A stretch of DNA of 64,000 bases, taken from contig BEHN01000007.1 of the NCBI GenBank assembly GCA_002898535.1, positions 4,946 through 68,945 on the forward strand, read 5' to 3'. The notes beneath the pieces were generated by a model, which was not told where the DNA came from, did not search any database, and saw nothing but the letters and a program-made list of their open reading frames with translations. The translations under genes and the position numbers were made by a program. Source of the DNA: a bacterium HR11. Its GTDB lineage: Bacteria; Acidobacteriota; HRBIN11. Positions 3,006 through 64,000 of this stretch are shown in pieces. Numbering within the stretch: the first letter of the stretch is position 1; each line of letters opens with the position of its first letter.

Positions 3006-3102
3006 GGCCCCGGGTACCGGGGACGTGTCATGAGTCACGCGCGACGAAGGGACCCTACGCCGTAAGCGGGGCCCAGACGCCGCCATCGCCGGCGGCGTCC
3101 CG

Positions 3103-3152
3103 ATCCCCATCTCCCGACCTGCCCATCTGCCGACCTGCCTGACTGCCTGACC
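3103..3152. repeat. fragment of the family-A heptamer core (CCCATCTGCCGACCTGCC...)
   Basis: Same 7-bp periodic unit (reverse complement of GGCAGATGGGCAGGTCGG) as in the MITE cores. Confidence 0.4.
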
Positions 3153-3159
3153 GTCCGAT

Positions 3160-3981
3160 TCACGGTCCCCCGCCCTGGATCGAGTAGGCGATCGTCAGGC
3201 TGAACAGGGCGTCGACGGGCTGGCCCCGGAGCGTCCCCGGCTTGAACCGCCACTGACGGACGCACTCGATGGCCGCCTGGTCGAGGACTCGGTCGACGGA
3301 CCGGACGACTCGAATCGGGCCGACCGTGCCGTCCCGCCGGACGACCAGGAGGAGGATGACGACGCCCTCGATGCGGTTGCGGCGGGCCTCCGGGGGGTAG
3401 ACGCACGGGACCTTCGAGATGGCGATGGGTGGCTCGCCCTCGCCGGGCCCGACGTGGACGCCGCCGAGGCCCGGGACCCCACCCAAAACGCCACCGGGCA
3501 CCCCACCGGGGACCCCGCCCGGGACGCCGCCGGGCACGCCGCCTTCGACGCCGCCCTCGACGCCCCAGACGGGGTCCCCCTCGAAAGTCCCGGCCAGTTC
3601 GTCGCCGGTCTCTGGACCCTCACTGTAGGGGACGATCACTTCGGGCGTGAACGCCGGGATGGCGATGGGGGCGACTTCCGGGGGCGGCGGCTCGGTCGGT
3701 CGAGGCCGGGCCGCCGACGGGGACGGTCCCGCCCGTCGGCCCGGCGGTGGGGGTGGCGGCGGCGGAGGCGGCGGGCCCAGCGTGCCCGTCCCGCCGATCA
3801 ACAGGGCCGGAACGGGCGGTTCGTCCAGATACTGGACCGACCACGCCGAAGCCAGGACCAGGGCGACGCCCAGCAGGACGTGCAGGCCGATGACCGGCGG
3901 GAACAGGGCCACCCGCCGGACGTCCCATCGCCGCCGTCGGGTGTCGATCAGGTCCTCGTGAAACCGTTTAGTCTGTAGCAT
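3160..3981 (-). CDS. tonB: TonB family protein (energy transducer)
   Basis: Start taken at M134 of ORF 3160..4380 (plus-strand CAT at 3979-3981). There is an N-terminal TM anchor, a Pro-rich spacer (PPPPPPPPPPP, GGVPGGVPGGVPGGV), and a C-terminal TonB domain ...EGVVILLLVVRRDGTVGPIRVVRSVDRVLDQAAIECVRQWRFKPGT. Confidence 0.75.
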   Translation of the reverse strand: MLQTKRFHEDLIDTRRRRWDVRRVALFPPVIGLHVLLGVALVLASAWSVQYLDEPPVPALLIGGTGTLGPPPPPPPPPPPGRRAGPSPSAARPRPTEPPPPEVAPIAIPAFTPEVIVPYSEGPETGDELAGTFEGDPVWGVEGGVEGGVPGGVPGGVPGGVPGGVLGGVPGLGGVHVGPGEGEPPIAISKVPCVYPPEARRNRIEGVVILLLVVRRDGTVGPIRVVRSVDRVLDQAAIECVRQWRFKPGTLRGQPVDALFSLTIAYSIQGGGP

Positions 3982-4145
3982 CTTCAGTGCCGGGCGCCGG
4001 GTCCCGGGGGAGGGACCGCGGCCCAGGATGCGAGTGCAGGACGCAAGATGACAGTCCCGGGTCCAGGATCGGCCGTTCGGCCGGCCGAATTCCCGATCCT
4101 GACGCCCGATATTCGGCACCCGGGACCGCCATCCTGCATCCCTAT

Positions 4146-7271: not shown

Positions 7272-7311
7272 GACAGTCCTCCGGAATGCAGGATGCAAGA
7301 TGCAGGACGGC

Positions 7312-7577
7312 TATCAGAGCCGTTCGGTTGGTGAAAACCCGCATGGATTCGGCTTTTTCGACCCTTCGGGAGGGACGGTTTTCAAGCTTTGGCAGATAGG
7401 CAGTTCGGCAGATGGGCAGATGGTCCCAAAAGCCCTGGGGCTGATCCTTGCCCACCCGGCTTCTATCTGCCTATCTGCCGACCTGCCCATCGGCCGGATG
7501 CTTGAAAAATCGTGCTTCCCGGGCGGTGGGAAAGGTTGATTTGACGCCATTCTCACGGACCGAACCGCTCTGTTAAG
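7312..7577. mobile_element. MITE-like palindromic element, family A copy 2, in the cusB-cusA intergenic space
   Basis: TCAGAGCCGTTCGG at the left end and CCGAACCGCTCTGTTAA at the right end, with GGCAGAT/GGCAGTT/GGCAGATGG 7-mer core and CCCCAGGGCTTTTGGGACC motif. It is the reverse orientation of the copy at 25476..25734. Confidence 0.65.
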
Positions 7578-7594
7578 TCCCCATCCCGCATCCC

Positions 7595-8924: not shown

Positions 8925-9071
8925 GAGTTCGGGAGTTCGGGAACCCGGGAATTCGGGGGTTCGGGAACTTCAAAGCCTGAGCGTCCCGTCGTCGGAGGCC
9001 CGCTCTGTCGAAGTGCCCGGTACCTGGTCCCCCGCCTCCCGAACTGCCGGACTCCCGAATTCCCGAATTGC
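8925..9071. repeat. palindromic heptamer-repeat element, family B (GGGAATTCGGG / CCCGAATTCCC type), in the cusC-cusB intergenic space
   Basis: Left arm GAGTTCGGGAGTTCGGGAACCCGGGAATTCGGGGGTTCGGGAAC, right arm CCTCCCGAACTGCCGGACTCCCGAATTCCCGAATTGCC. Confidence 0.6.
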
Positions 9072-11230: not shown

Positions 11231-11357
11231 GGGTGACCGCCCATCCCTTGGGCCGTGATCGACCGGGGCCTAACCCTGGGGCGGACCCTCCGAACGCCAC
11301 CAGTCACGGGGGCGTCCCCCTGTCCCCGGGCGCCGCCGGTCCCGGCGGTGGCATCTA

Positions 11358-11808
11358 TTCGGCAGATGGGCAGTCGGCAGGTCGGCAGGTCGGGCGACGG
11401 GCGTCTATCCTCGGAACACCGGCCGTCATGCCGGTGCCTTCCGTTCGGTTCGGGAGAATGGCGTCGGGACGGCCTTTTCCATCGCCCGGCAAGCACGATG
11501 TTTCACAAAGGGACGGAGTGATGGACCATAGACCCCAGACCATAGACCGGCTTGGGCCCAGGGGTCTATGGTCCATGGTCTATGGTCTATGGTCTATGGT
11601 CCGTGGTCCATGGTCTGGGGTCGGATATCGAGGGTCCGATCCCGGTCCCGTCGGATGGATGAGACCGGTTCGATGGAAGGATGATCCCGACCGGCCCGTC
11701 GGCCCAAGACCGTGGCTCGTCCCTCCGTCCCTTCAAAACCGTCCTCCCCGAAGGGTCGAAAAGGTCGAATCCATGCGGGCTTTCACGAACCGAACGGCTT
11801 TAATAAGC
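11358..11808. mobile_element. composite repeat: family-A MITE core and arms with a family-C (GGTCTATGG) palindrome inserted
   Basis: GGCAGATGGGCAGTCGGCAGGTCGGCAGG core at 11358-11400, arm ...GGGAGAATGGCGTCGGGACGGCCTTTTCC..., GACCATAGACC/GGTCTATGGTC palindrome at 11522-11625, and arm ...CCGAAGGGTCGAAAAGGTCGAATCCATGCGGGCTTTCACGAACCGAACGGCTTTAAT at 11735-11808. Confidence 0.5.
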
Positions 11809-12055
11809 GGTCCGCAGATCGGGAGGTTGCACGGCGTGTCGGGGAGTCTAAAATACGGAAGGCGATCAGGGGGCCCGGCCTGCCGGGTTTGGACGTATAG
11901 GCCCCCCGGCCCAGAAGGGGCGACGATACCGGGGGCCGGGGCTCGCGTCTCGGTATCTCACTTCCGGTAGGGTGCAGGCCCCGGCCTTGGAGCGCAGGCG
12001 TCCTCGCCTGGGGGAAGGTAGGCTTCTGGCCTGCGCCGAAGGAGGAGCGTTCTCG

Positions 12056-13399: not shown

Positions 13400-13429
13400 C
13401 GGGGCCATGGACAGCTCTCGGCATTTCGG

Positions 13430-13676
13430 GAATTCGGGAGTTCGGCAATTCGGCCGTTCGGCCGGTGGGACCGGTCGACCCTTTTTATCCCAGCCCCGCT
13501 CGTTCGAGCGGGGTCCGGAGCTATCCGGCCGTTCGGGAATCCGGGGATTCGGGAATTCGGGAGTTCGGGAGCCCGGGCATGGGGTGGCCGGCCGGGGCGG
13601 GGATGAGGCCTGGAGGCCCGTGCCGGTGGAAAAGGCCGTCTCGACGCCATTCTCACGGGCCGAACGGCTCTGTTAC
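13430..13676. repeat. family B GAATTCGGG palindrome (13430-13572) fused to a family-A MITE arm (13630-13676)
   Basis: CATTTCGGGAATTCGGGAGTTCGGCAATTCGGCCGTTCGG ... CCGTTCGGGAATCCGGGGATTCGGGAATTCGGGAGTTCGGGAGC, then GACGCCATTCTCACGGGCCGAACGGCTCTGTTA. Confidence 0.55.
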
Positions 13677-14334: not shown

Positions 14335-14344
14335 ACGTTATTGG

Positions 14345-14559
14345 GCCGAGGGTCCCCAAAGCCCTGGGGCCGCGCCTGGCCCATCCAGGGCTCTATCGGC
14401 CTTGGGCCGACCGGCCCATCGGCCCAAGGCCGGGGCTCGTCCCTTCGTTACTCCGTCATTCCATCCCTTCGTCACACCGTCCCTTTGAAACATCGTGCTT
14501 CCCGGGTGTTGGGAAAGGTCGTCCCGACGCCATTCTCACGGGCCGAACGGCTGTGTTAA
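14345..14559. mobile_element. MITE family A, 5'-truncated copy (sub-variant with GGTCCCCAAAGCCCTGGGGCCGCGCCTGGCCC core); direct repeat of 16171..16453
   Basis: Near-identical over about 215 bp to the right-hand part of the copy at 16171..16453, in the same orientation. It ends GACGCCATTCTCACGGGCCGAACGGCTGTGTTAA. Confidence 0.6.
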
Positions 14560-14677
14560 CAAAGCCGTAGGTCTTGGGTCCTGGGTGTCGGGTTTCCAAA
14601 GGGATCTGACCCTCCCATCTCCTATCGGGCCGCCCCGGGAATTGTCCCCGGCGGTCCGCTCCAGATGCTTTCAGCGT

Positions 14678-16170: not shown

Positions 16171-16453
16171 CAGAGCCGTTCGGCCCGTGCAAACCCGTAT
16201 GGATTCAGCCTTTCCGACCCTTCGGGGAGGACGATTTTTCAAGCGAAGGGCCGTTCGGGAGTTCGGCCGAGGGTCCCCAAAGCCCTGGGGCCGCGCCTGG
16301 CCCATCCAGGGCTCTATCGGCCTTGGGCCGACCGGCCCATCGGCCTAAGGCCGGGGCTCGTCCCTCCGTCCCTCCGTCCCTTTGAAACATCGGGCTTCCC
16401 GGGCGTTGGGAAAGGTCGTCCCGACGCCATTCTCACGGGCCGAACGGCTCTGT
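16171..16453. mobile_element. MITE family A, full copy (same sub-variant as 14345..14559)
   Basis: CAGAGCCGTTCGGCCCGTGCAAACCCGTATGGATTCAGCCTTTCCGACCCTTCGGGG... ...GGGAAAGGTCGTCCCGACGCCATTCTCACGGGCCGAACGGCTCTGTG. Confidence 0.65.
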
Positions 16454-19347: not shown

Positions 19348-19353
19348 AAGGTT

Positions 19354-19500
19354 AACAGAGCCGTTCGGTTCATGAGAATGGCGTCAGAACAATCTTTCCC
19401 ATCCCCCGGAAAGCACGATGTTTCAAGCATTCGGCAGATGGGCAGGTCGGCAGATGGGCAGATGGGCAGGTCGGCAGATGGGCAGGTTGAGAGACTGGTA
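19354..19500. mobile_element. MITE family A arm plus heptamer core (no right arm)
   Basis: AACAGAGCCGTTCGGTTCATGAGAATGGCGTCAGAACAATCTTTCCCATCCCCCGGAAAGCACGATGTTTCAAGCATTCGGCAGATGGGCAGGTCGGCAGATGGGCAGATGGGCAGGTCGGCAGATGGGCAGG. Confidence 0.55.
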
Positions 19501-19665
19501 CCTATCCTCGGAACACCGGCCGTCATGCCGGTGTCTTCCGTGGGGCGATGGCCCCTCACCCTGTCCCTTTCCCCGGAGGGGAGAGGGGACAGGATGGCCC
19601 ACGCCTCGCCTCCTGCCCGGAGCGAACGGCCAATGGCCAGCAAGATGCTGGCGCTCCCAGCGTAA

Positions 19666-19720
19666 GGTCTATGGTCGATGGTCCATGGTCTGTAGTCCAA
19701 GATGGACCGTTATGGATGGT
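19666..19720. repeat. family C GGTCTATGG heptamer palindrome (short)
   Basis: GGTCTATGGTCGATGGTCCATGGTCTGTAGTCC. Confidence 0.45.
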
Positions 19721-21036: not shown

Positions 21037-21318
21037 ATGACGAAACGGATGGGAAGCCGGGTCATCGGCCTGGTCCTGGCGGGGTGGGTCCTGGGCTTGG
21101 CCGTGGCCCGGGCGGATGAGGTCGCCAAGGTCCAGTCTGCCTGTGCCGCCCAGCTCCTGGAGGAACTCCAGGGTTCGTCCTCAAAGTGTAGCCTGTTCCC
21201 GAGCCTGCTGTTGACCCAGGGGCGCTACGCCCTGGTCGATATCCATGTCCGATGCGTCGCTCCCGGTTCGAGGGGGCCCGAGGTCTCCTATCAGAGCCGT
21301 TCGGGAGGTGAGAAGTGA
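21037..21318 (+). CDS. small secreted hypothetical protein
   Basis: Start at MTKRMGSRVIGLVLAGWVLGLAVARA (signal peptide), with RBS GGAGG 7 nt upstream. The C-terminal about 10 codons read into the MITE at 21292. Confidence 0.35.
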   Translation: MTKRMGSRVIGLVLAGWVLGLAVARADEVAKVQSACAAQLLEELQGSSSKCSLFPSLLLTQGRYALVDIHVRCVAPGSRGPEVSYQSRSGGEK

Positions 21319-21376
21319 GATGGAGGTGCCCTTTCCGCTCTCCATCTCACTTCTCACCTCCCGAACGGCTTTGTTA
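21292..21376. mobile_element. short palindromic variant of MITE family A
   Basis: CAGAGCCGTTCGGGAGGTGAGAAGTGAGATGGAGGTGCCCTTTCCGCTCTCCATCTCACTTCTCACCTCCCGAACGGCTTTGTTA is a near-perfect hairpin related to the arms of copy 1. Confidence 0.55.
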
Positions 21377-21460
21377 AAATTAGATGCGGGGGTCAGGAAT
21401 CGGGCTTTTCCCAGACCCCCGACACCCAGGACCCAAGACCGAGGTTCAGCGAGGTCGGCT

Positions 21461-24436
21461 ATGGCCGACAAGCCGGTGTTTCGTCCCATCAGTGATTACA
21501 TCTGGGAGGCGGAGCCCGTCGGCGATATGCGGGTCCCGGCCCGGGTCTTTGCCTCCAAGAAGCTCTGGGACCTCATCCAGCGGGACAACAGCCTGAAGCA
21601 GTTGTGCAACGTGGCGACGCTCCCGGGGATCGTGGGCTATGCGCTGGCGATGCCGGACATCCACGAGGGCTACGGCTTTCCCATCGGGGGCGTGGCGGCC
21701 TTTCGGGTCGAAGACGGAATTATATCACCTGGAGGCGTTGGGTATGACGTGAATTGCCTGTACGGTGATGCCAAAGTATTGCACATTCACGGATACACTC
21801 GGGCCATCGCCGATATGGAGGCCGACTGGCCTCAAGGGCGGGTCCGTTGTCAGGACTTCCGGGGGGGCCATGGTACGGATACACCCGTCATCGGCTTTTT
21901 ACGCCGTCGCCCTTACGGGACCGTTTATCGGGTGACGACGGACACGGGCCATGAAACTGTCGCGACGGCCGACCATCCCTTCTGGACGCCGGCGGGGATG
22001 GTCGAGCTCCGGCGGCTCCAGGTCGGGGATCGGGTGGCCGTCTACCCCTTTGAGGGCGTGCCTTACGAGGAGCCGGCGGCTCGGGTGTTGGTGGACGAGT
22101 CCCATATCGTGGCCGTCCTGGAACGCTATGGGAAGGCCGGGCGCGGCCGGGCCGTCACCCAGGTCTTGCGCCGACTTCGGTCGCGGGGGCTTCTGCCCTT
22201 GCGGGCGAACGCGCCGCAGGTCCCTTACCTGCTGAAGCTCTTGGGGTACGTGCTGGGAGACGGCACGGTCTACTTCACAGGCGGCACGGGCAAGGGCGTC
22301 GTGTGGTTTTATGGCCGACCGGAGGACCTGGAGGCTATCCGGGCCGACGTGGCGGCCCTCGGCTTCACGCCCTCTCGGATTTACAGTCGTCCCCGTCGTC
22401 ACCGTGTCACGACGGCCTATCGGGACTATGAATTCGAGAGCCAGGAACACGCCGTAAAGGTCGTAAGCAGTAGCTTCGCCGCCTTGCTGGTCGCTCTGGG
22501 CGCCCCGGTCGGCAACAAGGCGGTACAGGACTATGGGGTCCCCGAGTGGCTCCTGGAGGCACCTCGCTGGCATCAACGCCTCTTTTTAGCCGCCCTTTTT
22601 GGGGCCGAGCTTTCAGCCCCCCGGGCTTTGGACCGACACAATCACAATTTCATGACTCCTGTACTCTCGGTGAGCAAGCGAGAATCCCACGTCGATAGTG
22701 GCCGTCGTTTCCTCGAGGATATCGGGCGCATGTTAGCCGGTTTTGGCGTTCAGGTCCTGAAGATCTCTCAGCGGCGAGAGCAGACGCATGCGGACGGGAG
22801 CCGCTCGGTCCGTCTCCGACTCGTTCTCTCCGCCCGGCTCGACAGTCTGCGCAACCTCTGGGGCCGCATTGGATTCGAGTACAATCAAAAGCGGCAGGCC
22901 CTGGCGAGCGTGGCTGTCGGGTATTTACGGTACAAAGCGCATGTCTTGCGCCTCCGGGAGGAGGCGGCTTCGGCGGCCGTCGCCCTGCGGGCCCAGGCTC
23001 TGCCGCCGACGGCCATCTTCGACCGGCTCGTCGGCTTGTATGTAAATCGGCGCTTTTTAGAGCGGTCGCTGTATGAAGGTCGCACGAGCCCTCGGGTCGG
23101 CGCCGCCTTCATGACCTTCGAGGAGTACCGCCGTTGGGCGACCGAGGGTCTGGGGACCAGCGGGATGGTCTGGAGCCGGATCATTCGTCTGGAGCCGATT
23201 CCCTTCGCCGGGGACGTTTACGACCTGACCGTCGCCCATCCAGACCATAACTTCATCGCCGACGGATTCGTCGTCTCCAACTGCGGCGTCCGGGTCGTCG
23301 TCACGAACCTGACCCGGGAGGACCTGGAGGGGAAGGTCGAGCGGCTGGCCGACGTCCTGTTCGAGACGGTCCCGACGGGCGTCGGCGCCCACGGCGCCAT
23401 TCGCAAGCTCAGTCGGGAGGAGCTCCGGCAGGTCGTCGTCCGGGGCGCCCGGTGGGCCGTCGAGGAGGGCTTCGGGACCGAGGCGGACCTGGCCCACACC
23501 GAGGAAAACGGCTGTCTCGCCGGGGCGGACCCCGACAAGATCTCCCACCGGGCCTACGAGCGTGGGGCCGACCAGCTCGGGACCCTGGGGTCGGGCAACC
23601 ACTTTGCCGAGGTCGACGTCATCGACGAGATTTACGACGAGGCGGCCGCGCAGCGGTTGGGCCTCTTTCGGGGCCAGGTCGTCTATCAGATCCACTGCGG
23701 CTCTCGGGGCTTCGGGCACCAGATTTGCGACGATTACCTGGGCGTCATGTACCGGGCCGTCCAGAAGTACGGCATTCGCCTGCCGGACCGTCAGCTCGTG
23801 TGTGCGCCCCTTTCGTCGCCCGAGGCCCAGGACTACCTGGGGGCGATGCGGGGGGCGGCCAACTTTGCGTGGTGTAACCGGCAGATCATCATGGCCCTGA
23901 TGGCGAAGGCTTTTCAAAAGGCCCTGGGCGTCTCGCCCCGGGACCTGGGCGTCCGGCTCCTGTACGACGTGTGTCATAATATCGCCAAAATCGAGGAGCA
24001 CGTCATCGACGGTCAACGCGTGAAGGTCTGCGTCCACCGGAAGGGGGCCACGCGGGCCTTCCCGCCGGGTCGGCCCGAGATACCGGCCGACTATCGGGAC
24101 ATCGGTCAGCCGGTCCTGATCCCGGGCGACATGGGCCGGTACTCGTACATCCTCTTGGGGAAGCCGAAGGCGATGGAGCTGACCTTTGGGAGCTCCTGTC
24201 ATGGGGCGGGTCGGGTCATGAGCCGGGCCCAGGCGAAGCGTCTGGCGGCGCATCGGGACATCGAGCGGGAGCTCCGGGAGATGGGGATCATCGTCCGGGG
24301 CGAGAGTCGAGCGACCATCGACGAGGAGATGTCGGAGGCTTACAAGGACGTCAGCGAGGTCGTCGAGGTCGTCCATCGGACGGGCATCAGCACGAAGTTC
24401 GTACGTCTCCGGCCCGTCTGCGTCATCAAGGGATAG
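21461..24436 (+). CDS. rtcB: RNA-splicing ligase RtcB, interrupted by an in-frame intein
   Basis: Start at MADKPVFRPISDYIW... (M73 of ORF 21245..24436). The N-extein ends ...SPGGVGYDVN and the C-extein resumes CGVRVVVTNL... Downstream RtcB motifs are LGSGNHFAEVDV, HCGSRGFGHQ and SSCHGAGR. Total length is 991 aa against about 480 aa for intein-less RtcB. Confidence 0.85.
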   Translation: MADKPVFRPISDYIWEAEPVGDMRVPARVFASKKLWDLIQRDNSLKQLCNVATLPGIVGYALAMPDIHEGYGFPIGGVAAFRVEDGIISPGGVGYDVNCLYGDAKVLHIHGYTRAIADMEADWPQGRVRCQDFRGGHGTDTPVIGFLRRRPYGTVYRVTTDTGHETVATADHPFWTPAGMVELRRLQVGDRVAVYPFEGVPYEEPAARVLVDESHIVAVLERYGKAGRGRAVTQVLRRLRSRGLLPLRANAPQVPYLLKLLGYVLGDGTVYFTGGTGKGVVWFYGRPEDLEAIRADVAALGFTPSRIYSRPRRHRVTTAYRDYEFESQEHAVKVVSSSFAALLVALGAPVGNKAVQDYGVPEWLLEAPRWHQRLFLAALFGAELSAPRALDRHNHNFMTPVLSVSKRESHVDSGRRFLEDIGRMLAGFGVQVLKISQRREQTHADGSRSVRLRLVLSARLDSLRNLWGRIGFEYNQKRQALASVAVGYLRYKAHVLRLREEAASAAVALRAQALPPTAIFDRLVGLYVNRRFLERSLYEGRTSPRVGAAFMTFEEYRRWATEGLGTSGMVWSRIIRLEPIPFAGDVYDLTVAHPDHNFIADGFVVSNCGVRVVVTNLTREDLEGKVERLADVLFETVPTGVGAHGAIRKLSREELRQVVVRGARWAVEEGFGTEADLAHTEENGCLAGADPDKISHRAYERGADQLGTLGSGNHFAEVDVIDEIYDEAAAQRLGLFRGQVVYQIHCGSRGFGHQICDDYLGVMYRAVQKYGIRLPDRQLVCAPLSSPEAQDYLGAMRGAANFAWCNRQIIMALMAKAFQKALGVSPRDLGVRLLYDVCHNIAKIEEHVIDGQRVKVCVHRKGATRAFPPGRPEIPADYRDIGQPVLIPGDMGRYSYILLGKPKAMELTFGSSCHGAGRVMSRAQAKRLAAHRDIERELREMGIIVRGESRATIDEEMSEAYKDVSEVVEVVHRTGISTKFVRLRPVCVIKG
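21755..23281 (+). other. intein (509 aa) with LAGLIDADG homing-endonuclease domain inside rtcB
   Basis: The insert begins with Cys (CLYGDAKVLHIHGYT...) and ends ...HPDHNFIADGFVVSN immediately before the Cys of CGVRVV. LAGLIDADG-like motifs are LLGYVLGDGTVYF and FLAALFGAELS. The penultimate residue is Ser rather than the usual His. Confidence 0.75.
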
Positions 24437-24486: not shown

Positions 24487-25368
24487 ATGCGGCGAGGTTT
24501 GTCCGTGGTCGCATGCAAGCAATGTCGGGACACGGGCTGGCTTCCCGTCGAGCGGGGCGGCGTCGCCGGCGTCCGGCCGTGCGCATGCCGTCAGGAGCGT
24601 CAGCTCCGGTATCGTCTTCAGCAGGCCGGGATCCCGCCCCGGTTTCTGGACGCCGAGTTCGACACGTTCCAGCCGATTCACGAATCTCAGGCGTATGCCT
24701 TAGAGTTGGCGGTCCAGTTTGCGCGGTCTTATCCTGCCGTGGAGAGCGGTCTCTTCTTTGTCGGCCCGACGGGGGTCGGCAAGACGCACCTGATGGTCGC
24801 CGTCCTCAAGGCCCTGGCCCAACGGGACGTGCCGGTCCTGTTCTGTGATTGCAACGAGCTTCTGACTCAGCTTCGGCGCTCTTACAGTCGGGAAGCGTCG
24901 GTCTCCGAGGCCGACCTCATTCAGCCCCTGTTGGAGACCGAGCTCGTCCTCCTGGACGACTTGGGGGCGCATCGGGCCAGCGAATGGGTCTTCGACGTCC
25001 TGTTTTCGATCATTAACTACCGGTACAATCATCGGAAGCCCCTCCTGGTGACCAGCAATCTCATCGTGGACCGGCCCGGGGAGGACGTCCGGAGCCTCCT
25101 GGTGAGCCACCTCTCCCAGCGGGTCTACTCTCGGCTCGCCGAGATGTGTCTGATCACCGTGATCCGGGGTCCCGACTACCGGGTCGAAATCCGTCAGCCG
25201 GCCTGGCAGCAGACCCGGGGTACGGGCGACGGCTTGGCCCAGACGGCTCCGACCGCAGACCGGGGACCGGAGACTGGGGACCGGAGACCGGCGTCGGTGA
25301 CCCGACGGCTGGTCCGGCCGCCCCGTCTGGTCGGGCCGGACCTCCCGCCGGGGCCGGACGAGACTTGA
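24487..25368 (+). CDS. DnaC/IstB-like AAA+ ATPase (helicase-loader-like) with N-terminal Cys4 zinc ribbon
   Basis: CKQCRDTGW...CAC zinc ribbon. Walker A is GPTGVGKTH and Walker B is LVLLDDLG, with sensor SNL. The ATP-binding core is typical of DnaC/DnaI/IstB. The C-terminal about 50 aa are low-complexity. Confidence 0.7.
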   Translation: MRRGLSVVACKQCRDTGWLPVERGGVAGVRPCACRQERQLRYRLQQAGIPPRFLDAEFDTFQPIHESQAYALELAVQFARSYPAVESGLFFVGPTGVGKTHLMVAVLKALAQRDVPVLFCDCNELLTQLRRSYSREASVSEADLIQPLLETELVLLDDLGAHRASEWVFDVLFSIINYRYNHRKPLLVTSNLIVDRPGEDVRSLLVSHLSQRVYSRLAEMCLITVIRGPDYRVEIRQPAWQQTRGTGDGLAQTAPTADRGPETGDRRPASVTRRLVRPPRLVGPDLPPGPDET

Positions 25369-25370
25369 GA

Positions 25371-25450
25371 AGACCACAGACCATAGACCACAGACCATAG
25401 ACCGGCTTGGGCCCAGGGGTCTATGGTCCATGGTCTGTGGTCTATGGTCG
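25371..25450. repeat. family C palindrome (GACCACAGACCATAGACC ... GGTCTATGGTCCATGGTCTGTGGTCTATGGTC)
   Basis: Inverted 7-mer arrays around the GGCTTGGGCCCAGGG centre. Confidence 0.6.
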
Positions 25451-25475
25451 GACTTATGAGACTGGTTCTCTGATA

Positions 25476-25734
25476 CCAGAGCCGTTCGGTTCGTGAGAAT
25501 GGCGTCGGCACAACCTTTCCCAACGCCCGGGAAGCACGGTTTTTCAAGCATCCGGCCGATGGGCAGGTCGGCAGATAGGCAGATAGAAGCCGGGTGGGCA
25601 AGGATCAGCCCCAGGGCTTTTGGGACCATCTGCCCATCTGCCGAACTGCCTATCTGCCAAAGCTTGAAAACCGTCCTTCCCGAAGGGTCGGTAAAGCCGA
25701 ATCCATGCGAGTTTTCACCAACCGAACGGCTCTG
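25476..25734. mobile_element. MITE family A, full copy (reverse orientation of 7312..7577)
   Basis: CCAGAGCCGTTCGGTTCGTGAGAATGGCGTCGGCACAACCTTTCCCAACGCCCGGGAAGCACGGTTTTTCAAGC ... GCTTGAAAACCGTCCTTCCCGAAGGGTCGGTAAAGCCGAATCCATGCGAGTTTTCACCAACCGAACGGCTCTGA. A short family B motif (CCGAATTCCCGAATCG, 25741-25762) and a family C arm (25813-25842) follow. Confidence 0.65.
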
Positions 25735-25850
25735 ATAACCGGACTGCCGAATTCCCGAATCGTCCAAAAGATTTGGTTGACAAAGCACAAATCCCAAAGC
25801 AAGTTTATAATTTATGGTCTGTAGTCCGTGGTCTGGGGTCTTCCAGATCC

Positions 25851-32420: not shown

Positions 32421-32649
32421 CGGGGCTTCCCTCGATATGCGTAGGGGTCCTGGGTCTCGGGTGCCAGGTCCCGGCATCATCGGTGGTGGGTGCTCAGTGC
32501 TGATATTGGGTTTTCAGAGATGGGGATCGGAGGTCCAGCGTCTGAAAAAGCCTGATGTCCGACTCCTCAACACCGAACACCCAAGCCCTGACACCGGTAA
32601 GCCGGGACTCGAGACCTACGCTCCCGATAATATAGCGGAACCGGGAATT

Positions 32650-33741
32650 CTACTCAAGACGGATGCCTGTCGGCACGTCCGCCGGGGTCGAAAATCGGCG
32701 GGCCAACTCTTCAGGAATCGGGCGGCTGATGACGCCCCGATCGGTGATGATGGCCGTGATGAGCTCGTGGGGCGTCACGTCAAAGGCCGGGTTCCATACA
32801 GGCGTACCCTCCGGAGCGATGGGGACGTCCATGACGTGGGTCACCTCCTGAGAGTTCCGTTCCTCGATAGGGATGTGGGTCCCGTCGGGTGTCGCCATGT
32901 CGATCGTCGAATAGGGGGCCGCCACGTAGAAGGGGAGTCCGTGATAGTGGGCCAGGACAGCCAGCGTGTATGTCCCGACCTTGTTGGCCGTGTCCCCGTT
33001 TCGGGCGATGCGGTCGGCCCCCGTGAGGACGGCGGACGCCATGCCCCGCTGGAGCAGAAAGCCGGCCATGCCGTCCGTGATCAGGGTCGCCGGGATGCCT
33101 TCCCGGAGGAACTCCCACATCGTCAGGCGGGCTCCCTGAAGATACGGTCGGGTCTCACAGACGTAAACCCGCTCAAGAAGGCCCCGCCGCCAGAGCGTGC
33201 GGATGACGCCGGCGGCCGTCCCGTAGCCCGCCGTGGCGAGAAACCCCGTGTTGCAGATGGTCAGAAGACGGGCCGGCTCGTGAAATAACTGGGCGCCATA
33301 CTCGCCGATCCGGCGGTTGAGAGCGACGTCCTCGACCTGAATCTCCAGGGCTTCCGTCCGGAGGTACCGGAACAGCTCGTCGGGCGGTGCGTCCAGATGA
33401 GCCTCCAGGACTCGTTCCATCCGGCGAAGGGCCCACGTCAGATTGACGGCCGTCGGCCGGGTCTGCCGGAGGGTCTCGGCGACCCGTCGGAAGTAGGCCC
33501 GCCGAGCTTCGGGGTCTGTCGGGACGCCCGACGAAACCCGGAAGGCCAGGGCGACGCCCATGGCCGCCGCTACGCCGATGGCCGGGGCCCCCCGGATGAC
33601 CATCGTCCGAATCGCCTGGGCCATATCCTCATAGGTCCGAGCGATGTAAACTTCTTCCCGATGGGGCAGGTAGCGCTGGTCGATCATCCAGACCGTATGG
33701 TCTTCCACCTGCCAGACGATGGGCGTCTCATACGGCCACAT
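32650..33741 (-). CDS. mtnA: S-methyl-5-thioribose-1-phosphate isomerase (eIF-2B alpha/beta/delta family)
   Basis: 363 aa: MWPYETPIVWQVEDHTVWMIDQRYLPHREEVYIARTYEDMAQAIRTMVIRGAPAIGVAAAMG... with the C-terminal MtnA active-site region CETRPYLQGARLT. Confidence 0.85.
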   Translation of the reverse strand: MWPYETPIVWQVEDHTVWMIDQRYLPHREEVYIARTYEDMAQAIRTMVIRGAPAIGVAAAMGVALAFRVSSGVPTDPEARRAYFRRVAETLRQTRPTAVNLTWALRRMERVLEAHLDAPPDELFRYLRTEALEIQVEDVALNRRIGEYGAQLFHEPARLLTICNTGFLATAGYGTAAGVIRTLWRRGLLERVYVCETRPYLQGARLTMWEFLREGIPATLITDGMAGFLLQRGMASAVLTGADRIARNGDTANKVGTYTLAVLAHYHGLPFYVAAPYSTIDMATPDGTHIPIEERNSQEVTHVMDVPIAPEGTPVWNPAFDVTPHELITAIITDRGVISRPIPEELARRFSTPADVPTGIRLE

Positions 33742-33811
33742 GGATGCCTCCGCCGGTCCGGCGGTTCAACGGCCCGGTTGCCGAGGGACCGAACGGCCCT
33801 TATTATACTAC

Positions 33812-34160
33812 GGGAATTCGGCCATTCGGGAGTTCGGCAGTTCGGCCATAAGGCAGATGGGCAGAGCAGGGTGGGCTGACAGCAGCTGACGTGATTGTGG
33901 CTTTTTGGGTCATTGGATGGGATTTTATGGCACACGAGTAGCGAATGGCGAGTGGCGAGTAGCGAGTAGCGAATGGCGAGTAGCGAGTAGCGAATGGCGA
34001 GGACGGGGCGGTCCCCGGGGAGGCGTCCTGTGGCTCATAGGTCATATTAGCTCATGGGTCATGGCTCATGGTCCCATGAGCTATGAGCCAATAGGGGCCA
34101 TCGGCTTGCCGCCCGTCCACCGGCCTATCGGCCGAATGGCCGAACTCCCGAATTCCCGGC
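33812..34160. repeat. compound palindromic heptamer-repeat region: family B arms (33812-33850, 34130-34160) enclosing family D (GCGAGTAGCGAATGGCGAG, 33936-34000) and family E (CTCATGGGTCATGGCTCATGG, 34032-34092) arrays
   Basis: Successive 7-bp-period tandem arrays (GGGAATTCGG, GAGTAGC/GAATGGC, CATGAGC) are arranged as nested inverted repeats between mtnA and rpmH. Confidence 0.6.
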
Positions 34161-34173
34161 TACTCGATGAGCC

Positions 34174-34308
34174 ATGAAGCGGACGTTTCAGCCGAACATT
34201 CGCCATCGCAAGAAGACGCACGGCTTCCGAGCTCGGATGCGAACGCCGGGGGGCCGGCGGGTCCTCAAGCGGCGTCGGCAGAAGGGCCGATGGCGCCTGA
34301 CGCCGTGA
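34174..34308 (+). CDS. rpmH: 50S ribosomal protein L34
   Basis: 44 aa: [44 protein letters not shown]. It is too short for the ORF track. It sits in the canonical position upstream of rnpA. Confidence 0.9.
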
Positions 34309-36689: not shown

Positions 36690-36720
36690 GGCTTGGGCAG
36701 AGGGCAGGTAGCAGAGCCCT

Positions 36721-36917
36721 TGGGTTTGTGAAAGTGGCGTCGGGTCGGCTTTTTCCATGGCCCGAAAGAGACCCAGGAGGAATGGGGAGTGGGGAATGAG
36801 GAATGAGGAATGGGGAATGAGGAATGGGGAATGAGGGGGGCACATATGAGGTCATGGCTCATAGCCCATGAGCCATCAGCTATCAGCCATGAGCCGATCG
36901 GGGCCAAGAGCTATGAC
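36721..36917. repeat. family F (GGAATGGGGAATGAGGAATGAGG, 36770-36835) and family E (CATGAGCC, 36846-36917) heptamer arrays
   Basis: GGAATGGGGAGTGGGGAATGAGGAATGAGGAATGGGGAATGAGGAATGGGGAATGAG, then GGTCATGGCTCATAGCCCATGAGCCATCAGCTATCAGCCATGAGCC. Confidence 0.55.
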
Positions 36918-36920
36918 CTA

Positions 36921-37182
36921 ACAGAGCCGTTCGATTCGTGAGAATGGCGTCGGAACAACCTTTCCCAACGCCCGGGAAGCACGGTTTTTCAAGCATCCGG
37001 CAGATGGGCAGGTCGGCAGATAGGCAGATAGAAGCCGGGTGGGCAAGGATCAGCCCCAGGGCTTTTGGGACCATCTGCCCATCTGCCGAACTGCCTATCT
37101 GCCAAAGCTTGAAAAACCGTCCTCTCCGAAGGGTCGAAAAAGCCGAATCCATGCGGGTTTTCACGAACCGAACGGTTCTGTT
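36921..37182. mobile_element. MITE family A, full copy
   Basis: AACAGAGCCGTTCGATTCGTGAGAATGGCGTCGGAACAACCTTTCCCAACGCCCGGGAAGCACGGTTTTTCAAGC ... CCGAATCCATGCGGGTTTTCACGAACCGAACGGTTCTGTTA. It abuts the stop of the downstream minus-strand gene. Confidence 0.65.
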
Positions 37183-37918: not shown

Positions 37919-37935
37919 CGGGGCCTCGTAGGGAA

Positions 37936-38090
37936 GACCATAGGCGATAGACCCCAGACCATGGGCCACGGAGCGTAGAGCACGGACCTCCCGGCCGTGG
38001 GGATGAGTGGGAGGGTCTTCCGAAACTTGTCCAAGGCCCGTATCTAAATTCCATGGTCTAAGGTCTGTGGTCTATGGTCTATGGTCTTTA
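37936..38090. repeat. family C GGTCTATGG palindrome with about 70-bp spacer
   Basis: CCATAGGCGATAGACCCCAGACCATGGGCC ... CCATGGTCTAAGGTCTGTGGTCTATGGTCTATGGTC. Confidence 0.55.
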
Positions 38091-40058: not shown

Positions 40059-40089
40059 GGGACCTTCGCCTCATAGCAAGGGGTGGGTC

Positions 40090-40300
40090 GCGAATAGCGA
40101 ACGGCGAATGGCGAGTAGCGAATGGCGAGGGCGCGTCGGACAAGGGCCGTTTGCTATCGCTCGCTCGACCGCCGATGGGACCCCCGCGGGTGGCCCCTAC
40201 GACAGCCGGTTCCCCCGCTTCTGCCGAATAGAGCGAGGGTGCTCCAGATGTCCGACCTGGTCGCCACTCGCCATTCGCTACTCGCCATTCGCCACTCGAT
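40090..40300. repeat. family D palindrome (GCGAATAGCGAACGGCGAATGGCGAGTAGCGAATGGCGAG ... CTCGCCATTCGCTACTCGCCATTCGCCACTCG)
   Basis: Inverted 7-mer arrays at 40090-40130 and 40261-40300 flank a 130-bp core. The right arm overlaps the 3' end of the ABC ATPase ORF. Confidence 0.55.
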
Positions 40301-40898
40301 AGACCCGGTGGTCCCGGAGGGACCACACCTCGTCGACGGGCAGGTCCACGTCGACGGAACGGTGGCTCGAGAAGAGGACGCCCTGACCCCGGCGGCGCCA
40401 CTTCTGGAGCAAGTCGTTGAGGTCGGCCTGGGCCTGGGCGTCCAGGCCCGTCCAGGGCTCGTCTAAGCATACGATGGGCGGACCCCAGATGTCCAGGCAA
40501 AAGAGGAGGAATCGCTGTTGCATGCCTCGGGAAAAGTGCCGCAGGGGCTCGTCCCAGAAGGTCCGCAGGAGCGGGTCCTCCGGCCGGGGGTCCCCCCGAA
40601 CGTGAGGAAAAAACGTAAACCGAAGCCAACGGGCGTACTGCCGAGCCGACCATTCAGGGTACAGGGGCGCGTCGTGGCCCAGCCACCCGACGGGAAGGTC
40701 CGACGGCTCCCGAAGGACCGTCCCCCGAGTCGGCCGCTTGAGGCCGGCGATGCACCGCAGGAGGGTCGTCTTGCCAGCGCCGTTGGGTCCCTCCAGACGG
40801 TACATCCGGCCGGGCCGGACCTCCAGGTTCACACCCGTCAGGACCCGTTGGAACCCGTACGCCAGGTCGACTTGAACCAAACGGATGAGGCCCGTCAT
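40278..40898 (-). CDS. ABC transporter ATP-binding protein, short CcmA-like
   Basis: 206 aa. Walker A is GPNGAGKTTL. The signature motif is FSRGMQQR. Walker B is IVCLDEPWTGLD, with the H-loop at SSHR. No permease gene is adjacent. Confidence 0.75.
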   Translation of the reverse strand: MTGLIRLVQVDLAYGFQRVLTGVNLEVRPGRMYRLEGPNGAGKTTLLRCIAGLKRPTRGTVLREPSDLPVGWLGHDAPLYPEWSARQYARWLRFTFFPHVRGDPRPEDPLLRTFWDEPLRHFSRGMQQRFLLFCLDIWGPPIVCLDEPWTGLDAQAQADLNDLLQKWRRRGQGVLFSSHRSVDVDLPVDEVWSLRDHRVYRVANGE

Positions 40899-41945: not shown

Positions 41946-42274
41946 GCACTTCGTGGCTTTTGGCTTACGTCACGATGGGGGCCCTGCTGTTCGGTATCGG
42001 GGTCGTCGGCTTCCTCGTCCGGCGGAACCTGATCGTCCTCTTTATGTGTATCGAACTCATGCTGAACGGGGTCAACCTGACGCTGACGGCCTTTTCCCGG
42101 TACCACGGCTCGGTCGACGGCCAGGTCATCGCCTCGATGGTCATCGTCTTGGCCGCTTCCGAGGCGGCCGTCGGCCTGGCCCTGCTGGTCATGATTTTCC
42201 GGCACCTGCGGACGTTAGACACGGAGACCTTCACGCGCTTGGGGGAGGCAAAGACCATAGACCCCGGACCATGA
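41942..42274 (+). CDS. nuoK: NADH-quinone oxidoreductase subunit K
   Basis: MSTSWLLAYVTMGALLFGIGVVGFLVRRNLIVLFMCIELMLNGVNLTLTAF... The start overlaps the nuoJ stop. The last about 8 codons read into a family-C repeat. Confidence 0.85.
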   Translation: MSTSWLLAYVTMGALLFGIGVVGFLVRRNLIVLFMCIELMLNGVNLTLTAFSRYHGSVDGQVIASMVIVLAASEAAVGLALLVMIFRHLRTLDTETFTRLGEAKTIDPGP

Positions 42275-42358
42275 CCTTGTGGGGTCACGGAGTACCCTCA
42301 CCCGAGATGAGGCAGACTTGGCCTTCCAAAGGTCTATGGTCTAAGGTCCATGGTCTTT
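42252..42358. repeat. family C GGTCTATGG palindrome between nuoK and nuoL
   Basis: GACCATAGACCCCGGACCATGACC ... GGTCTATGGTCTAAGGTCCATGGTC. Confidence 0.55.
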
Positions 42359-42390
42359 TCTGAACACCCAAGACGAACACCGAGTTCGTC

Positions 42391-44383: not shown

Positions 44384-45100
44384 ATGGCGGCCACGCTGGA
44401 AGAACGCGTCGCTTACCTGGAGGGTCGAGTCGATGAACAATCGCGCCTGAGTGGAGAACTGCGGGACATGGTGTTCCATTTAGACCAGAAAGTCGACCGG
44501 TTCCGGGAGGAGCTGATAGCGGAGATTCGGGCCGTCGACCAGAAGGTGGACCGGTTCCGAGAAGAGCTGACGGCGGAGATTCGGGCCGTCGACCAGAAAG
44601 TCGACCGGTACCGTGAAGAACTGACGGCGGAGATCCGGGTCGTCGACCAGAAGGTCGACCGATTCCGGGAGGAGCTGATAGCGGAGATTCGGGCTGTCGA
44701 CCAGAAGGTGGACCGGTTCCGGGAAGAGCTGATGGCGGAGATTCGGGCCGTCGACCAGAAAGTCGACCGGTACCGTGAAGAACTGATGGCGGAGATCCGG
44801 GTCGTCGACCAGAAGGTCGACCGATTTCGGGAGGAGCTGATGGCGCAGATCCAGGCCGTGGACCAGCGGCTGTCGGCCGAGATTCGGGCCGTCGACCAAA
44901 AGGTCGACCGGTATCGGGAAGAGTTGTTAGCTCAGATGCAAGCCCTCGACCAGCGGCTGTCGGCCCGGATCCAGAGCTTAGAGCAAAAGGTTCGGGACTT
45001 GGACCAGCGGATGACCCGGTACTTCATATGGATTGTAGGCCTTCAGTTTGCGACGTTGGCGACCATCATCAGTCTACTTTTGAGCATATTGCTTCGGTAA
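44384..45100 (+). CDS. tail-anchored coiled-coil protein built from about 8 tandem 18-aa repeats (DQKVDRFREELIAEIRAV), inserted between nuoL and nuoM
   Basis: 238 aa. RBS GGAGGT lies 6 nt upstream. The N-terminal part is MAATLEERVAYLEGRVDEQSRL. Seven or eight near-identical 18-residue units with F/Y, I/T/M, A/V variation make up the middle. A single C-terminal TM helix, YFIWIVGLQFATLATIISLLLSILL, ends the protein. Confidence 0.6.
   Translation: MAATLEERVAYLEGRVDEQSRLSGELRDMVFHLDQKVDRFREELIAEIRAVDQKVDRFREELTAEIRAVDQKVDRYREELTAEIRVVDQKVDRFREELIAEIRAVDQKVDRFREELMAEIRAVDQKVDRYREELMAEIRVVDQKVDRFREELMAQIQAVDQRLSAEIRAVDQKVDRYREELLAQMQALDQRLSARIQSLEQKVRDLDQRMTRYFIWIVGLQFATLATIISLLLSILLR
44480..44940 (+). 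repeat. intragenic 54-bp tandem repeat (about 8.5 copies) with a 162-bp higher-order period
   Basis: GACCAGAA(A/G)GT(C/G)GACCGGT(T/A)CCG(G/T)GA(G/A)GA(G/A)CTGA(T/C)(A/G)GCGGAGAT(T/C)CGGG(C/T)CGTC units. Units 1-3 correspond one-to-one with units 4-6, with 1-3 substitutions each. Confidence 0.7.
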
Positions 45101-48622: not shown

Positions 48623-48718
48623 TTCGGTCTTTGGGTGTTGGGTGAATTACCCGACCCAACACGCGCATCTAAGACCTAACACCGGTATCTTGGGCCGATG
48701 GGCCCCTTCGCTTATATC

Positions 48719-48872
48719 AGCTCATGGGTCATGGCTCATAGTTCATGGGCCCATGACCCATGAGCCACGAGCCATAAGCCGATCTCACCGGGCCCTTCTT
48801 GACATAGCCGTTCGGTTCGTGGAAACCCGGATGGATTCAGCCTTTCCGACCCTTCGGGGCGGACGGTGTGAC
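48719..48872. repeat. family E CATGAGCC palindrome (48719-48782) followed by a single family-A MITE arm (48805-48872)
   Basis: CTCATGGGTCATGGCTCATAGTTCATGGGCCCATGACCCATGAGCCACGAGCCATAAGCC, then GCCGTTCGGTTCGTGGAAACCCGGATGGATTCAGCCTTTCCGACCCTTCGGGGCGGACGGTGTG. Confidence 0.55.
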
Positions 48873-49075
48873 GAGCGACGGTCTTGGGCCGGCGGGCCGG
48901 TCGGGATCATCCTTCCATCGTCACTCCGTCACTTCATCACTCCTTCACGCGGATGACCGACCCCCACAAGTAATGCTTTGTCAGCTTGTATTTTGAGGGA
49001 ATCCAGACGTTCGGGAAGCCGGGAAATGCGTCGTGAAATAGCACGCCGGCCCCGGGTTCCTGGGGCCTCCTCTTG

Positions 49076-55181: not shown

Positions 55182-55365
55182 ATTCGGCCGTCCGGGAATT
55201 CGGGCGTCCGGTAATCCGGCCGTTCAGGAATTCAGCCGTCTGGCATAAAGGGTCGGGGGAGGTCACCCGGACCTACCGTCCAAGCCGGTGTATCCGGCCA
55301 CGGCCGGATTCCTGAACGCCCGAACTCCCGGACTGCCGGACGGCCGAGCTCCCGAATTCCCGAAT
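55182..55365. repeat. family B GAATTCGGG palindrome inside the che-like cluster (between AAA gene and cheA)
   Basis: CCGGGAATTCGGGCGTCCGGTAATCCGGCCGTTCAGGAATTCAGCCG ... GGATTCCTGAACGCCCGAACTCCCGGACTGCCGGACGGCCGAGCTCCCGAATTCCCGAATAGCCGG. Confidence 0.6.
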
Positions 55366-61330: not shown

Positions 61331-61465
61331 CAATGAGGAATGAGGATTGAGGAATGTGGAATGGAATTCCCCATTCCTCACCCCTCATTCCTCATTCCTC
61401 ATTCCCCATTCCCCATTCCTCACTCCTCACTCCTCACTCCCCATTCCTCATTCCCCATTCCTCCC
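61331..61465. repeat. family F palindrome (AATGAGGAATGAGGATTGAGGAATGTGGAATGGAATTCCCCATTCCTCA...CCATTCCTCATTCCCCATTCC)
   Basis: 7-bp periodic inverted arrays lie between the dCMP deaminase stop and the argF start. Confidence 0.6.
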
Positions 61466-63896: not shown

Positions 63897-64000
63897 GACC
63901 CCAGACTCCAGACCACGGACCCCAGACCTGTCTCGGGCGACCGGGCGGCCTCGTCCTGAGACCCTATAGGTCTGTGGTCCATGGTCTATGGTCCATCCCT
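63897..64000. repeat. family C palindrome (CCAGACTCCAGACCACGGACCCCAGACC ... GGTCTGTGGTCCATGGTCTATGGTCC)
   Basis: 7-bp periodic inverted arrays at the window edge. Confidence 0.55.

Follow-up and report, generated by a model that had tools for sequence, protein, structure and literature searches.

The intergenic spacers of a 64,000-nt stretch of the genome of the hot-spring bacterium HR11 (Acidobacteriota; contig BEHN01000007.1, positions 4,946 to 68,945), hereafter referred to as the window, contain numerous elements built from tandem arrays of 7- or 8-nt units, including a compound element in the spacer between mtnA and rpmH. The preferred explanation, which is assigned a probability of about one half, treats these elements as foldback repeats, non-coding and non-autonomous, in which each arm is a microsatellite of 7- or 8-nt units; the repeats would disperse, nest, and slip. 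In most elements the arms are inverted, and the 5' arm is the one rich in purines or G. Microsatellite behavior of the arrays is demonstrated by whole-unit differences between strains, unequal arms, and higher-order periods. Whole palindromes have been copied to unrelated sites and are gained, lost, and swapped faster than the flanking genes diverge. [quoted passage not shown] The feature is real and dense, and represents a very rich case of a kind of repeat that has already been reported and remains unexplained.

Periodicity, families, and folding of the arrays

Tandem Repeats Finder (TRF) and a lag scan recovered ten arrays with a period of 7 nt and twelve with a period of 8 nt in the window, with none at lags 4-6 or 9-11, and 50 first-order Markov simulations produced no arrays at any lag from 4 to 12. 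Across the window and seven related loci, the lag scan identified 60 arrays, distributed among periods of 7 nt (24 arrays), 8 nt (28 arrays), 12 nt (7 arrays), and 6 nt (1 array). The autocorrelation of non-coding DNA reaches 0.332 at lag 7 and also at lag 8, compared with ~0.25, and shows harmonics at 14, 16, 21, and 24; the only period found in coding DNA is 3 nt. The 7-nt peak anticipated by the original prediction, a description of the window made from its sequence alone, is therefore present in non-coding DNA, together with an equal second peak at lag 8. The "strict heptamer periodicity" described there is wrong: families C, D, E, and F do have 7-nt units, but the unit of family B is 8 nt long, and the units are degenerate and occur in two sizes.

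The unit of family B (GGGAATTC, GGCAGTTC, and similar; consensus GGSMRTTC) has GGCAGTTC in common with the units of the MITE core (family A, GGCMGNTV), and the two families intergrade within a single array. Families D (GCGARTR) and F (RGGARTG) differ at one position, and C (GGTCYRT) and E (RGNTCAT) are also close; the families are not independent of one another. Five families had been predicted in addition to the MITE cores, and nearly all of the copies listed hold the unit types assigned to them, but more than five families exist: G (GGGTGTT), H (GGATGCA), I (GGTACCN), and the octamers GGCAGTAN and CGTGACGA occur in the window or its relatives. Unit variants inside arrays are mostly transitions, and TRF detects higher-order periods of 2-6 units, with matches rising from 88% at the base period to 100% at 14 nt in family C and from 82% to 100% at 24 nt in family A.

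Occupancy was computed on a hand-curated gene map with 7,714 non-coding bases in the window. Elements account for 61% of these bases when the MITE/A family is included, and families B-G alone account for 29%. Among spacers of at least 100 nt, 14 of 24 contain elements of families B-G and 19 of 24 contain elements when MITE/A is counted, so that the earlier statement that palindromes fill most spacers is roughly right; two spacers initially scored as empty hold decayed G-type arrays or units. At a stricter threshold, 13 of the 22 window arrays are wholly non-coding and the others touch gene ends only. One period-7 array (GACCGGR units) lies within the 3' end of a DnaC/IstB-like open reading frame (ORF; 25251-25293) and is conserved at 8404-8448 of L003 (L-numbers denote related or matching contigs or loci compared with the window), indicating that arrays can reach into the ends of coding sequences. 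The C array at 25811-25842 may be the outer partner of this C-like array.

The compound element lies in a 432-nt spacer between mtnA (32650-33741, minus strand, IF-2B family) and the start of rpmH at 34174. As had been proposed, families B, D, and E are nested here, with the D array and the E palindrome inside an inverted B pair (33811-34158; coordinates of the parts in Table 1). The left B arm passes gradually into A-type (MITE-core) GGCAGATG units at its end, and a unique stretch separates it from the D array, which shows 81% matches at period 7 and 93% at period 21 (TRF) and has no inverted partner array in the spacer. A small GC-rich hairpin stands between D and E, and the E palindrome folds as RNA with -33.1 kcal/mol (z -4.75). 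Beside the rpmH start, D and E units in reverse-complement orientation have the appearance of remnants of earlier arms. Autocorrelation in 33790-34165 is 0.425 at lag 7 and 0.359 at lag 8, and the entire compound stretch, folded as single-stranded DNA, reaches -81.6 kcal/mol (z -5.1). The promoter-like site directly 5' of the B array would put the entire compound element in the rpmH leader.

The inverted arrays are predicted to fold better than shuffled sequence, in agreement with the long hairpin or cruciform capacity originally suggested. The predicted RNA hairpins have z scores of -4.3 to -8.8 in eight of ten folds, the remaining two being E at 36846 (z -2.9) and a partial D segment without its right arm (z +0.6), and predicted energies at 70 °C are still -14 to -73 kcal/mol. 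The distance between paired arms ranges from 0 to 254 nt, and the arms, which comprise 3 to 14 units each, are often unequal within one element. Where reported (families B, D, and F), several pairing registers are similarly complementary, which gives no sign that any single exact pairing has been selected, and unit-by-unit mirror symmetry of the arms was rejected. The earlier description of each element as a direct array followed by its reverse complement applies to most listed copies, but single arrays (D 33935, F 36774, C 19663, and C 25811) and arrays in the same orientation also exist. Arm polarity is pronounced: among 20 pairs in the window, purines are more frequent in the left arm than in its partner in all 20 and make up over half of the left arm in 17, and the left arm is G-rich by GC skew in 15. 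The left arm is G-rich in families A, B, D, E, F, and G, the exception being family C, where four of five pairs are reversed and one is near neutral.

Turnover at orthologous spacers

The closest genome records are hot-spring metagenome-assembled genomes (MAGs) labelled Acidobacteriota (L003 and L066, ~92-94% nucleotide identity; L004, 86%), and a YidC-based scan of metagenomes yielded four syntenic contigs (L083-L086, 82-91% nucleotide identity). The genes of these relatives are collinear with those of the window, but the spacers are unalignable and widely different in length. The spacer between the DnaC-like gene and mutL measures 488 nt in the window (a C palindrome, a MITE, and other repeats), contains an 89-nt D-type palindrome in L003, and is much shorter in L085 (28 nt) and in L084 and L086 (6 nt each). 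In L084 (928-933) and L086, the counterpart of window 25363-25850 consists of TAGATG, in which the DnaC/IstB-like stop codon abuts the mutL start. An AT-rich stretch in the window spacer (TTGACA-23 nt-TATAAT at ~25784-25818) might supply a promoter. The C palindrome at 37934 and the D palindrome at 40087 are missing from three relatives: the former site spans 189 nt in the window, 26 nt in L084 and L086, and holds an I-type palindrome in L085, and the latter spans 242 nt in the window and 43-61 nt in the relatives. Conversely, site 28915/6 is empty in the window (13 nt) and occupied in L003 by a 316-nt nested insert with G arms outside and C arms inside, and in L084 and L086 by other inserts.

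Other spacers remain occupied by elements that differ among lineages. Between nuoK and nuoL, the window has a C palindrome, L084 and L086 have H and I arrays around a conserved core, and L085 has a G palindrome. Homology of nuoK to all relatives ends at 42248, 26 nt before the stop codon (window 42248-42274); because the last codons and the stop lie inside an arm of the C element, each lineage ends nuoK within its own inserted element. In the mtnA/rpmH spacer, B-type arms are kept in L066, L004, and L085, and D and E are found in the window only. Decay of the right arm has cost the L084 clade its outer B hairpin. The -10 region of the putative rpmH promoter is TATTATACT in L066, L003, L083, L084, and L086, and ATATTATAT in L004 and L085, and an octamer array follows this region directly in every lineage inspected.

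Differences between the close strains L084 and L086 reveal unit-sized changes. Where flanking spacer sequence is near-identical, their arrays differ by indels of 16, 35, 14, and 14 nt, corresponding to 2 octamers, 5 heptamers, and, twice, 2 heptamers. The same two strains carry unrelated spacers between one pair of genes (L084 13683-14010, 328 nt; L086 13647-13791, 145 nt) with a common 8-mer array at the right edge, a difference that looks like cassette-type replacement.

An assembly artefact produced by collapsed or chimeric reads was considered as another explanation. Short-read contigs of this lineage (L001, L002, L003, and L004) do break at the arrays: L001 and L002 stop at 33964, within the D array, and the break in L003 falls at the first B unit. 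However, independent Logan contigs are 100% identical through the left B arm and into D as far as position 33964, and comparable elements are traversed without a break by longer contigs from other samples (L066, L083-L086). The Logan identity and the presence of the same kinds of arrays in four further syntenic contigs indicate that the repeats are not an artefact, and the chance that they are is negligible. Since short-read contigs stop at arrays, MAGs of this group are likely fragmented at every occupied spacer.

Table 1. Arrays, palindromes, and associated sites in the window, with context and fold or pair data.
Feature	Coordinates	Strand	Context or structure	Fold or pair
B palindrome	8925..9067		between OEP (cusC-like) and CusB-like genes	RNA fold z -4.25
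C palindrome (GGTCYRT)	11523..11616		arms 3.6 and 7.7 units	
Two B arrays, direct not inverted orientation (13416, 13523)	13416..13579		between tig and clpP	
C array, single	19663..19697			
C palindrome	25371..25449		directly 3' of DnaC/IstB-like stop codon	RNA fold z -8.75
C array, single	25811..25842		just upstream of mutL	
G-type inverted pair, decayed	32482..32600			
Promoter-like site	33778..33806	+	TTGCCG, 17 nt, TATTAT; directly 5' of B array	
Family B left arm	33811..33862	not assigned	~6.5 degenerate octamers CGGGAATT CGGCCATT CGGGAGTT CGGCAGTT ...	
Family D array	33935..34001	not assigned	direct array, 9.6 heptamers (CGAGTAG, CGAATGG)	
Family E palindrome, small	34031..34090	not assigned	GGNTCAT heptamers	inverted-repeat pairs I5, I6, I11
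Family B right arm	34117..34158	not assigned	octamers, 79-83% complementary to 33811-33862 in several registers	
Lone reverse-complement D unit (CTACTCG) and E units (ATGAGCCATGA)	34160..34177		abut rpmH start codon	pair I10, 11 nt, 100%
F array (GRGGAAT units), single	36774..36838		occupies usual octamer-core position of half-MITE frame	
E palindrome	36846..36895			RNA fold z -2.9
C palindrome	37934..38088			
D palindrome	40087..40301		arms 91% complementary, 137-nt loop	pair I9
C palindrome	42250..42356		between nuoK and nuoL; followed by G-type right-arm remnants (GAACACCCAAGACGAACACCG)	
G palindrome, small (GGGTGTT units)	48632..48690			
E palindrome	48720..48780			pair I7; RNA fold z -5.96
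B palindrome	55182..55364		between AAA_22 gene and cheA	
F palindrome	61332..61463		very unequal arms, 4.6 and 14 units	RNA fold z -8.3
B palindrome, 180-nt loop	62471..62726			pair I10
C palindrome	63897..63996			RNA fold z -4.62

The MITE family whose core defines family A is ~270-295 nt long, with full copies at 1741-2037, 7302-7579, 25474-25747, and 36915-37182, and fragments at 11357-11520, 11671-11818, 13624-13675, 14341-14560, 16193-16453, 19350-19541, 21286-21381, 36709-36770, and 48803-48948. Its ends read TAACAGAGCCGTTCG...CGAACGGCTCTGTTA, with a possible TA target duplication, and its center is an octamer-array palindrome; the terminus has also been given as TAACAGAGCC, possibly with flanking TA. 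A MITE orthologue in L066 retains the frame around a different central array (CGTGACGA). One short MITE copy overlaps the annotated 5' end of the RtcB RNA ligase gene (21245-24436), which contains an intein (Intein_splicing domain, residues 215-679). Between nuoL and nuoM, a 238-aa coiled-coil ORF (44384-45100) consists of 54-nt (18-aa) tandem repeats in 7.1 copies, and the 1-kb segment carrying it is wholly absent from L085. Absent from the window is a 1261-aa gene (298-4083; domains zf-HC2, VIT, and VWA) that L066 carries as an extra between yidC and the gene for the SpoU methylase.

Dispersal, function, and rival explanations

Copying to unrelated sites is evident from a 71-nt C palindrome that, including its loop, is 97% identical at 11524 and 25379-25449 in unrelated flanks. 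A "C inside G" composite is found at non-orthologous sites in two genomes, and the L003 insert has arms common to all C copies of the window and a 21-nt internal motif common to 11414 and 19511. The two 97%-identical C copies show no target-site duplication, and at the counterpart of 28915/6 the L003 insert offers at best a possible, ambiguous AGAG duplication; of the two features that define a MITE, terminal inverted repeats and a target-site duplication, the first has a counterpart in the arms, which act as inverted ends, and the second is lacking. Copies could instead be spread by hairpin- or single-strand-based mobilisation supplied in trans, resembling the chemistry of the REPIN/RAYT system (hairpin-forming doublets of repetitive extragenic palindromic (REP) sequences and their associated transposases) or of IS200/IS605, which fits because target-site duplications and fixed termini are absent. 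The motif RTRG (including GTAG) occurs at unit junctions in families C, D, E, and F and in part of A, and does not occur in B, G, H, or I. Loops of existing hairpins may be favored or tolerated landing sites, and replication slippage in steps of 7-8 nt would then lengthen and shorten the arms. Effects on the host would be mostly incidental, arising from the placement of very stable hairpins in leaders and operon junctions.

Several points weigh against dispersal of foldback repeats as the explanation. The lack of a clear target-site duplication is one, and another is that no transposase or RAYT-like gene is present among the 49 window ORFs (Pfam, 64-kb window); insertion sequences are likewise missing from the window and the related loci examined. 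The extra 1261-aa gene of L066 was considered as a mobilising enzyme and rejected, since it encodes a VIT/VWA protein and not a transposase. The strong arm polarity might have a functional cause instead of being inherited. Additionally, the mtnA/rpmH, yidC/spoU, and nuoK/nuoL spacers exceed 70 nt in every lineage looked at, and array elements of differing families are present in all inspected lineages at mtnA/rpmH and nuoK/nuoL; at yidC/spoU the sequences read were those of the window, L066, L084, and L086. Such always-occupied spacers could be explained by a function that is needed there as well as by a hot spot. Lastly, some orthologous spacers differ by wholesale replacement and not by clean insertion, which could result from recombination between strains.

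Selection of the elements, site by site, as RNA hairpins useful to the host (terminators, attenuators, or protectors of mRNA ends resembling REP sequences or bacterial interspersed mosaic elements (BIMEs)) is an unlikely general explanation, even though it accounts for several observations. The predicted hairpins are very stable and persist at 70 °C, many copies stand directly after stop codons or within operons, and the gene contexts named in the original prediction (OEP/CusB-like, nuoK/nuoL, and AAA_22/cheA) are correct. An A-run and a T-run border the C copy at 42250-42356, transcription has been found for most of the heptamer repeats of Xanthomonas (Rehm et al., PMC4692102), and the three spacers that exceed 70 nt in all lineages contain arrays wherever sequence was read. 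However, most copies have no T-run 3' of the stem, and a consensus scan for intrinsic terminators flagged only the C copy, at 42329-42360, where a terminator between nuoK and nuoL would be harmful. Folding energies of the plus and minus strands show no strand bias relative to gene direction (5 agree, 4 disagree). Scans of the entire window returned no Rfam family at gathering thresholds and no tRNA. In relatives, orthologous sites are unoccupied, as at the TAGATG abutment in L084 and L086, the outer hairpin of the rpmH leader is lost in one clade (L084), and arms are unequal and pair similarly in several registers where checked (B, D, and F). The proposed role as REP/BIME-like stabilisers or attenuators is not supported as a conserved function, given that orthologous spacers are empty, swapped, or one-armed at 82-94% identity; a REP-like role is possible at the few always-occupied spacers.

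The confinement of the period to 7 and 8 nt and the strong arm polarity would also be expected of cooperative binding-site arrays for DNA- or RNA-binding proteins, either nucleoid-associated or global regulators (IHF/HU) or ribbon-helix-helix proteins such as MetJ and the omega repressor. The boxes bound by MetJ are tandem and 8 bp long, and those of the omega repressor are 7-bp heptads arranged directly or inverted. The octamer array just after the putative rpmH -10 in every lineage inspected is consistent with such a role, and the paired sites of Geobacter were read in this way by Aklujkar et al. (PMC2700814). Nevertheless, the coexistence of at least 7-9 unit families, each with its own sequence, would call for many proteins, unit sequence and number drift fast between strains, many sites are dispensable, and no candidate binding protein is linked to arrays in the window, leaving this explanation decidedly improbable. 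G-quadruplex or i-motif repeats, as read for the heptamers of Xanthomonas and Nostoc, are a very improbable alternative: GGG recurs every 8 nt in family B and GGGG every 7-14 nt in family F, and (GGGAATC)n forms quadruplexes in vitro (Rehm et al., PMC4692102), but the G-run of the C and D consensus is only two bases long, GGG appears only in scattered units of E and the MITE core, and ordinary base pairing with the inverted partner would compete. CRISPR, telomere-like ends, and Chi-like arrays beside a fragile palindrome were also weighed and not adopted, some of these readings being contradicted by a period that is too short and by the absence of spacers.

A broader proposal, which is quite unlikely as it stands, would make the arrays one cross-phylum class of polar "heptad-array hairpins" that are made or moved by a strand-specific single-strand DNA process and carried between lineages by phages. 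Units would follow a loose grammar, G-S-S-A-R-T-R, often with a GTAG-like RTRG, the 5' arm would nearly always be the one rich in purines or G, and the process could be a RAYT/IS200-like HUH enzyme cutting each unit or snap-back synthesis at a G-rich nascent strand. Pattern scans of a viral sequence collection found matches to D-type arrays (GCGARTR x 3.5) in at least 120 stretches, to C type in 23, to F type in 16, and to B type (octamer) in 3. Among the D-type matches listed, GC content ranges from 34% to 73%, many plus/minus pairs are 40-100 nt apart, and 65 inverted pairs are convergent and 1 is divergent. The cross-phylum proposal is compatible with these data because D-type palindromes occur in at least 120 stretches, some of them between phage genes, with 65:1 polarity. 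Some of the matching contigs are true phages. In L207 (2760-3660), GCGAATA-type palindromes occupy the spacers that separate the genes for portal, prohead protease, and major capsid proteins, each preceded by a GTAG-tagged REP-like hairpin (GTAGGGTGCAAT...ATTGCACC), and in L218 (480-700 and 13848-13922) palindromes of this type bracket a gene whose product has a phage minor-tail-protein domain. A BLAST comparison of L206, L218, and the D array with plasmids returned no match, although the low-complexity filter probably masks arrays.

Comparison with known repeat systems

Tandem heptamers have been known in cyanobacteria since 1990 and were found later in Xanthomonas, Geobacter, and Beggiatoa; the cyanobacterial short tandemly repeated repetitive (STRR) sequences were reportedly described by Mazel et al. 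in 1990. The lineage examined here provides an unusually rich natural experiment, with many families, two unit sizes, nesting, and gain, loss, replacement, and unit change at defined sites in syntenic strains, and the phage-borne copies and arm polarity offer concrete handles on slippage, mobilisation, and function. In practical terms, the arrays break short-read assemblies of the group and shift gene ends (nuoK).

The likeness to STRR sequences noted in the original prediction is apt: tandem 7-nt units are found in families C, D, E, and F (B is excluded by its period of 8), the units are over-represented in non-coding DNA, and unit number is polymorphic between close strains (L084 versus L086). 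The high-GC background has precedents in Xanthomonas and Geobacter. Intergenic TAACTGA arrays are known from Beggiatoaceae, cyanobacteria, and Bacteroidetes (MacGregor, PMC4679880). TAACTGA and STRR arrays resemble the present ones as tandem intergenic heptamers with many families or copies per genome and a patchy distribution across phyla, but those arrays are mostly direct (169 direct sets versus one indirect in a Beggiatoa genome), and their units are AT-richer.

REP sequences and REPINs (PMC3116915, PMC3733652) share with the present elements the form of short extragenic hairpins occurring as singlets and inverted doublets, the lack of target-site duplication, variability between strains, and the invasion of operon junctions, and the RTRG (GTAG, ATGG, GTGG, ATAG) in many units here recalls the GTAG tag. 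REP/REPIN biology and RAYT or TIRYT genes in Acidobacteria have been covered previously (PMC3733652). However, REP arms are fixed at 20-40 bp, whereas the arms here are tandem arrays varying by whole units, and the window contains no RAYT. The Drosophila elements Foldback, Galileo, and Tetris (PMC4079207, PMC3573991) are alike in structure, with inverted arms of tandem sub-repeats and variable loops and arm lengths; those elements are eukaryotic, kilobase-sized, and served by their own or P-like transposases, and no membership is implied.

In G. metallireducens, opposite-strand paired sites consist of four octanucleotides, three 8-9-mers, or five heptanucleotides; one of them separates proB from proA, and none is present in G. 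sulfurreducens (PMC2700814). The features of these Geobacter classes (classes 1-3 and (GGACCGG)4) recur here: several paired opposite-strand tandem classes per genome at variable distance, positions within operons, sites shared between classes, and lineage specificity, seen in Geobacter as absence from the sister species and here as sets of families that differ between the window, the L084 clade, and L085. The Geobacter repeats differ in having other unit sequences, a short fixed number of 3-5 units, an IHF/HU interpretation, and no reported nesting or length polymorphism.

Xanthomonas contains ~186 (GGGANTN)n heptamer sites, 70-75 of which are convergent inverted pairs (PMC4692102); these repeats are intergenic, length-variable, transcribed, and without assigned function (Rehm et al. 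2015, PMC4692102), and Rehm et al. refer to the suggestion that steps of 7 nt are well suited to slippage by polymerase. The Xanthomonas (GGGAATC/GGGANTN)n and Nostoc GGGGA(C/T)T repeats are likewise degenerate heptamers (2-26 units there versus 3-14 here), and those of Xanthomonas also occur in a high-GC host, in intergenic positions near gene ends, as inverted pairs, and with variation between close relatives. The two close convergent arrays that define the Xanthomonas type are found in the window, and the F and B units (GGGAATG, GGGAATTC) are nearly the Xanthomonas unit, but a G-run of three or longer in each unit is regular only in B and F, and most families here are without G-quadruplex capacity. 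Compared with the single family of Xanthomonas, the present lineage has at least 7 families and two unit sizes, and it is further distinguished by nesting, placement in MITE frames, and a far higher density, with 61% of the non-coding bases of the window lying in elements.

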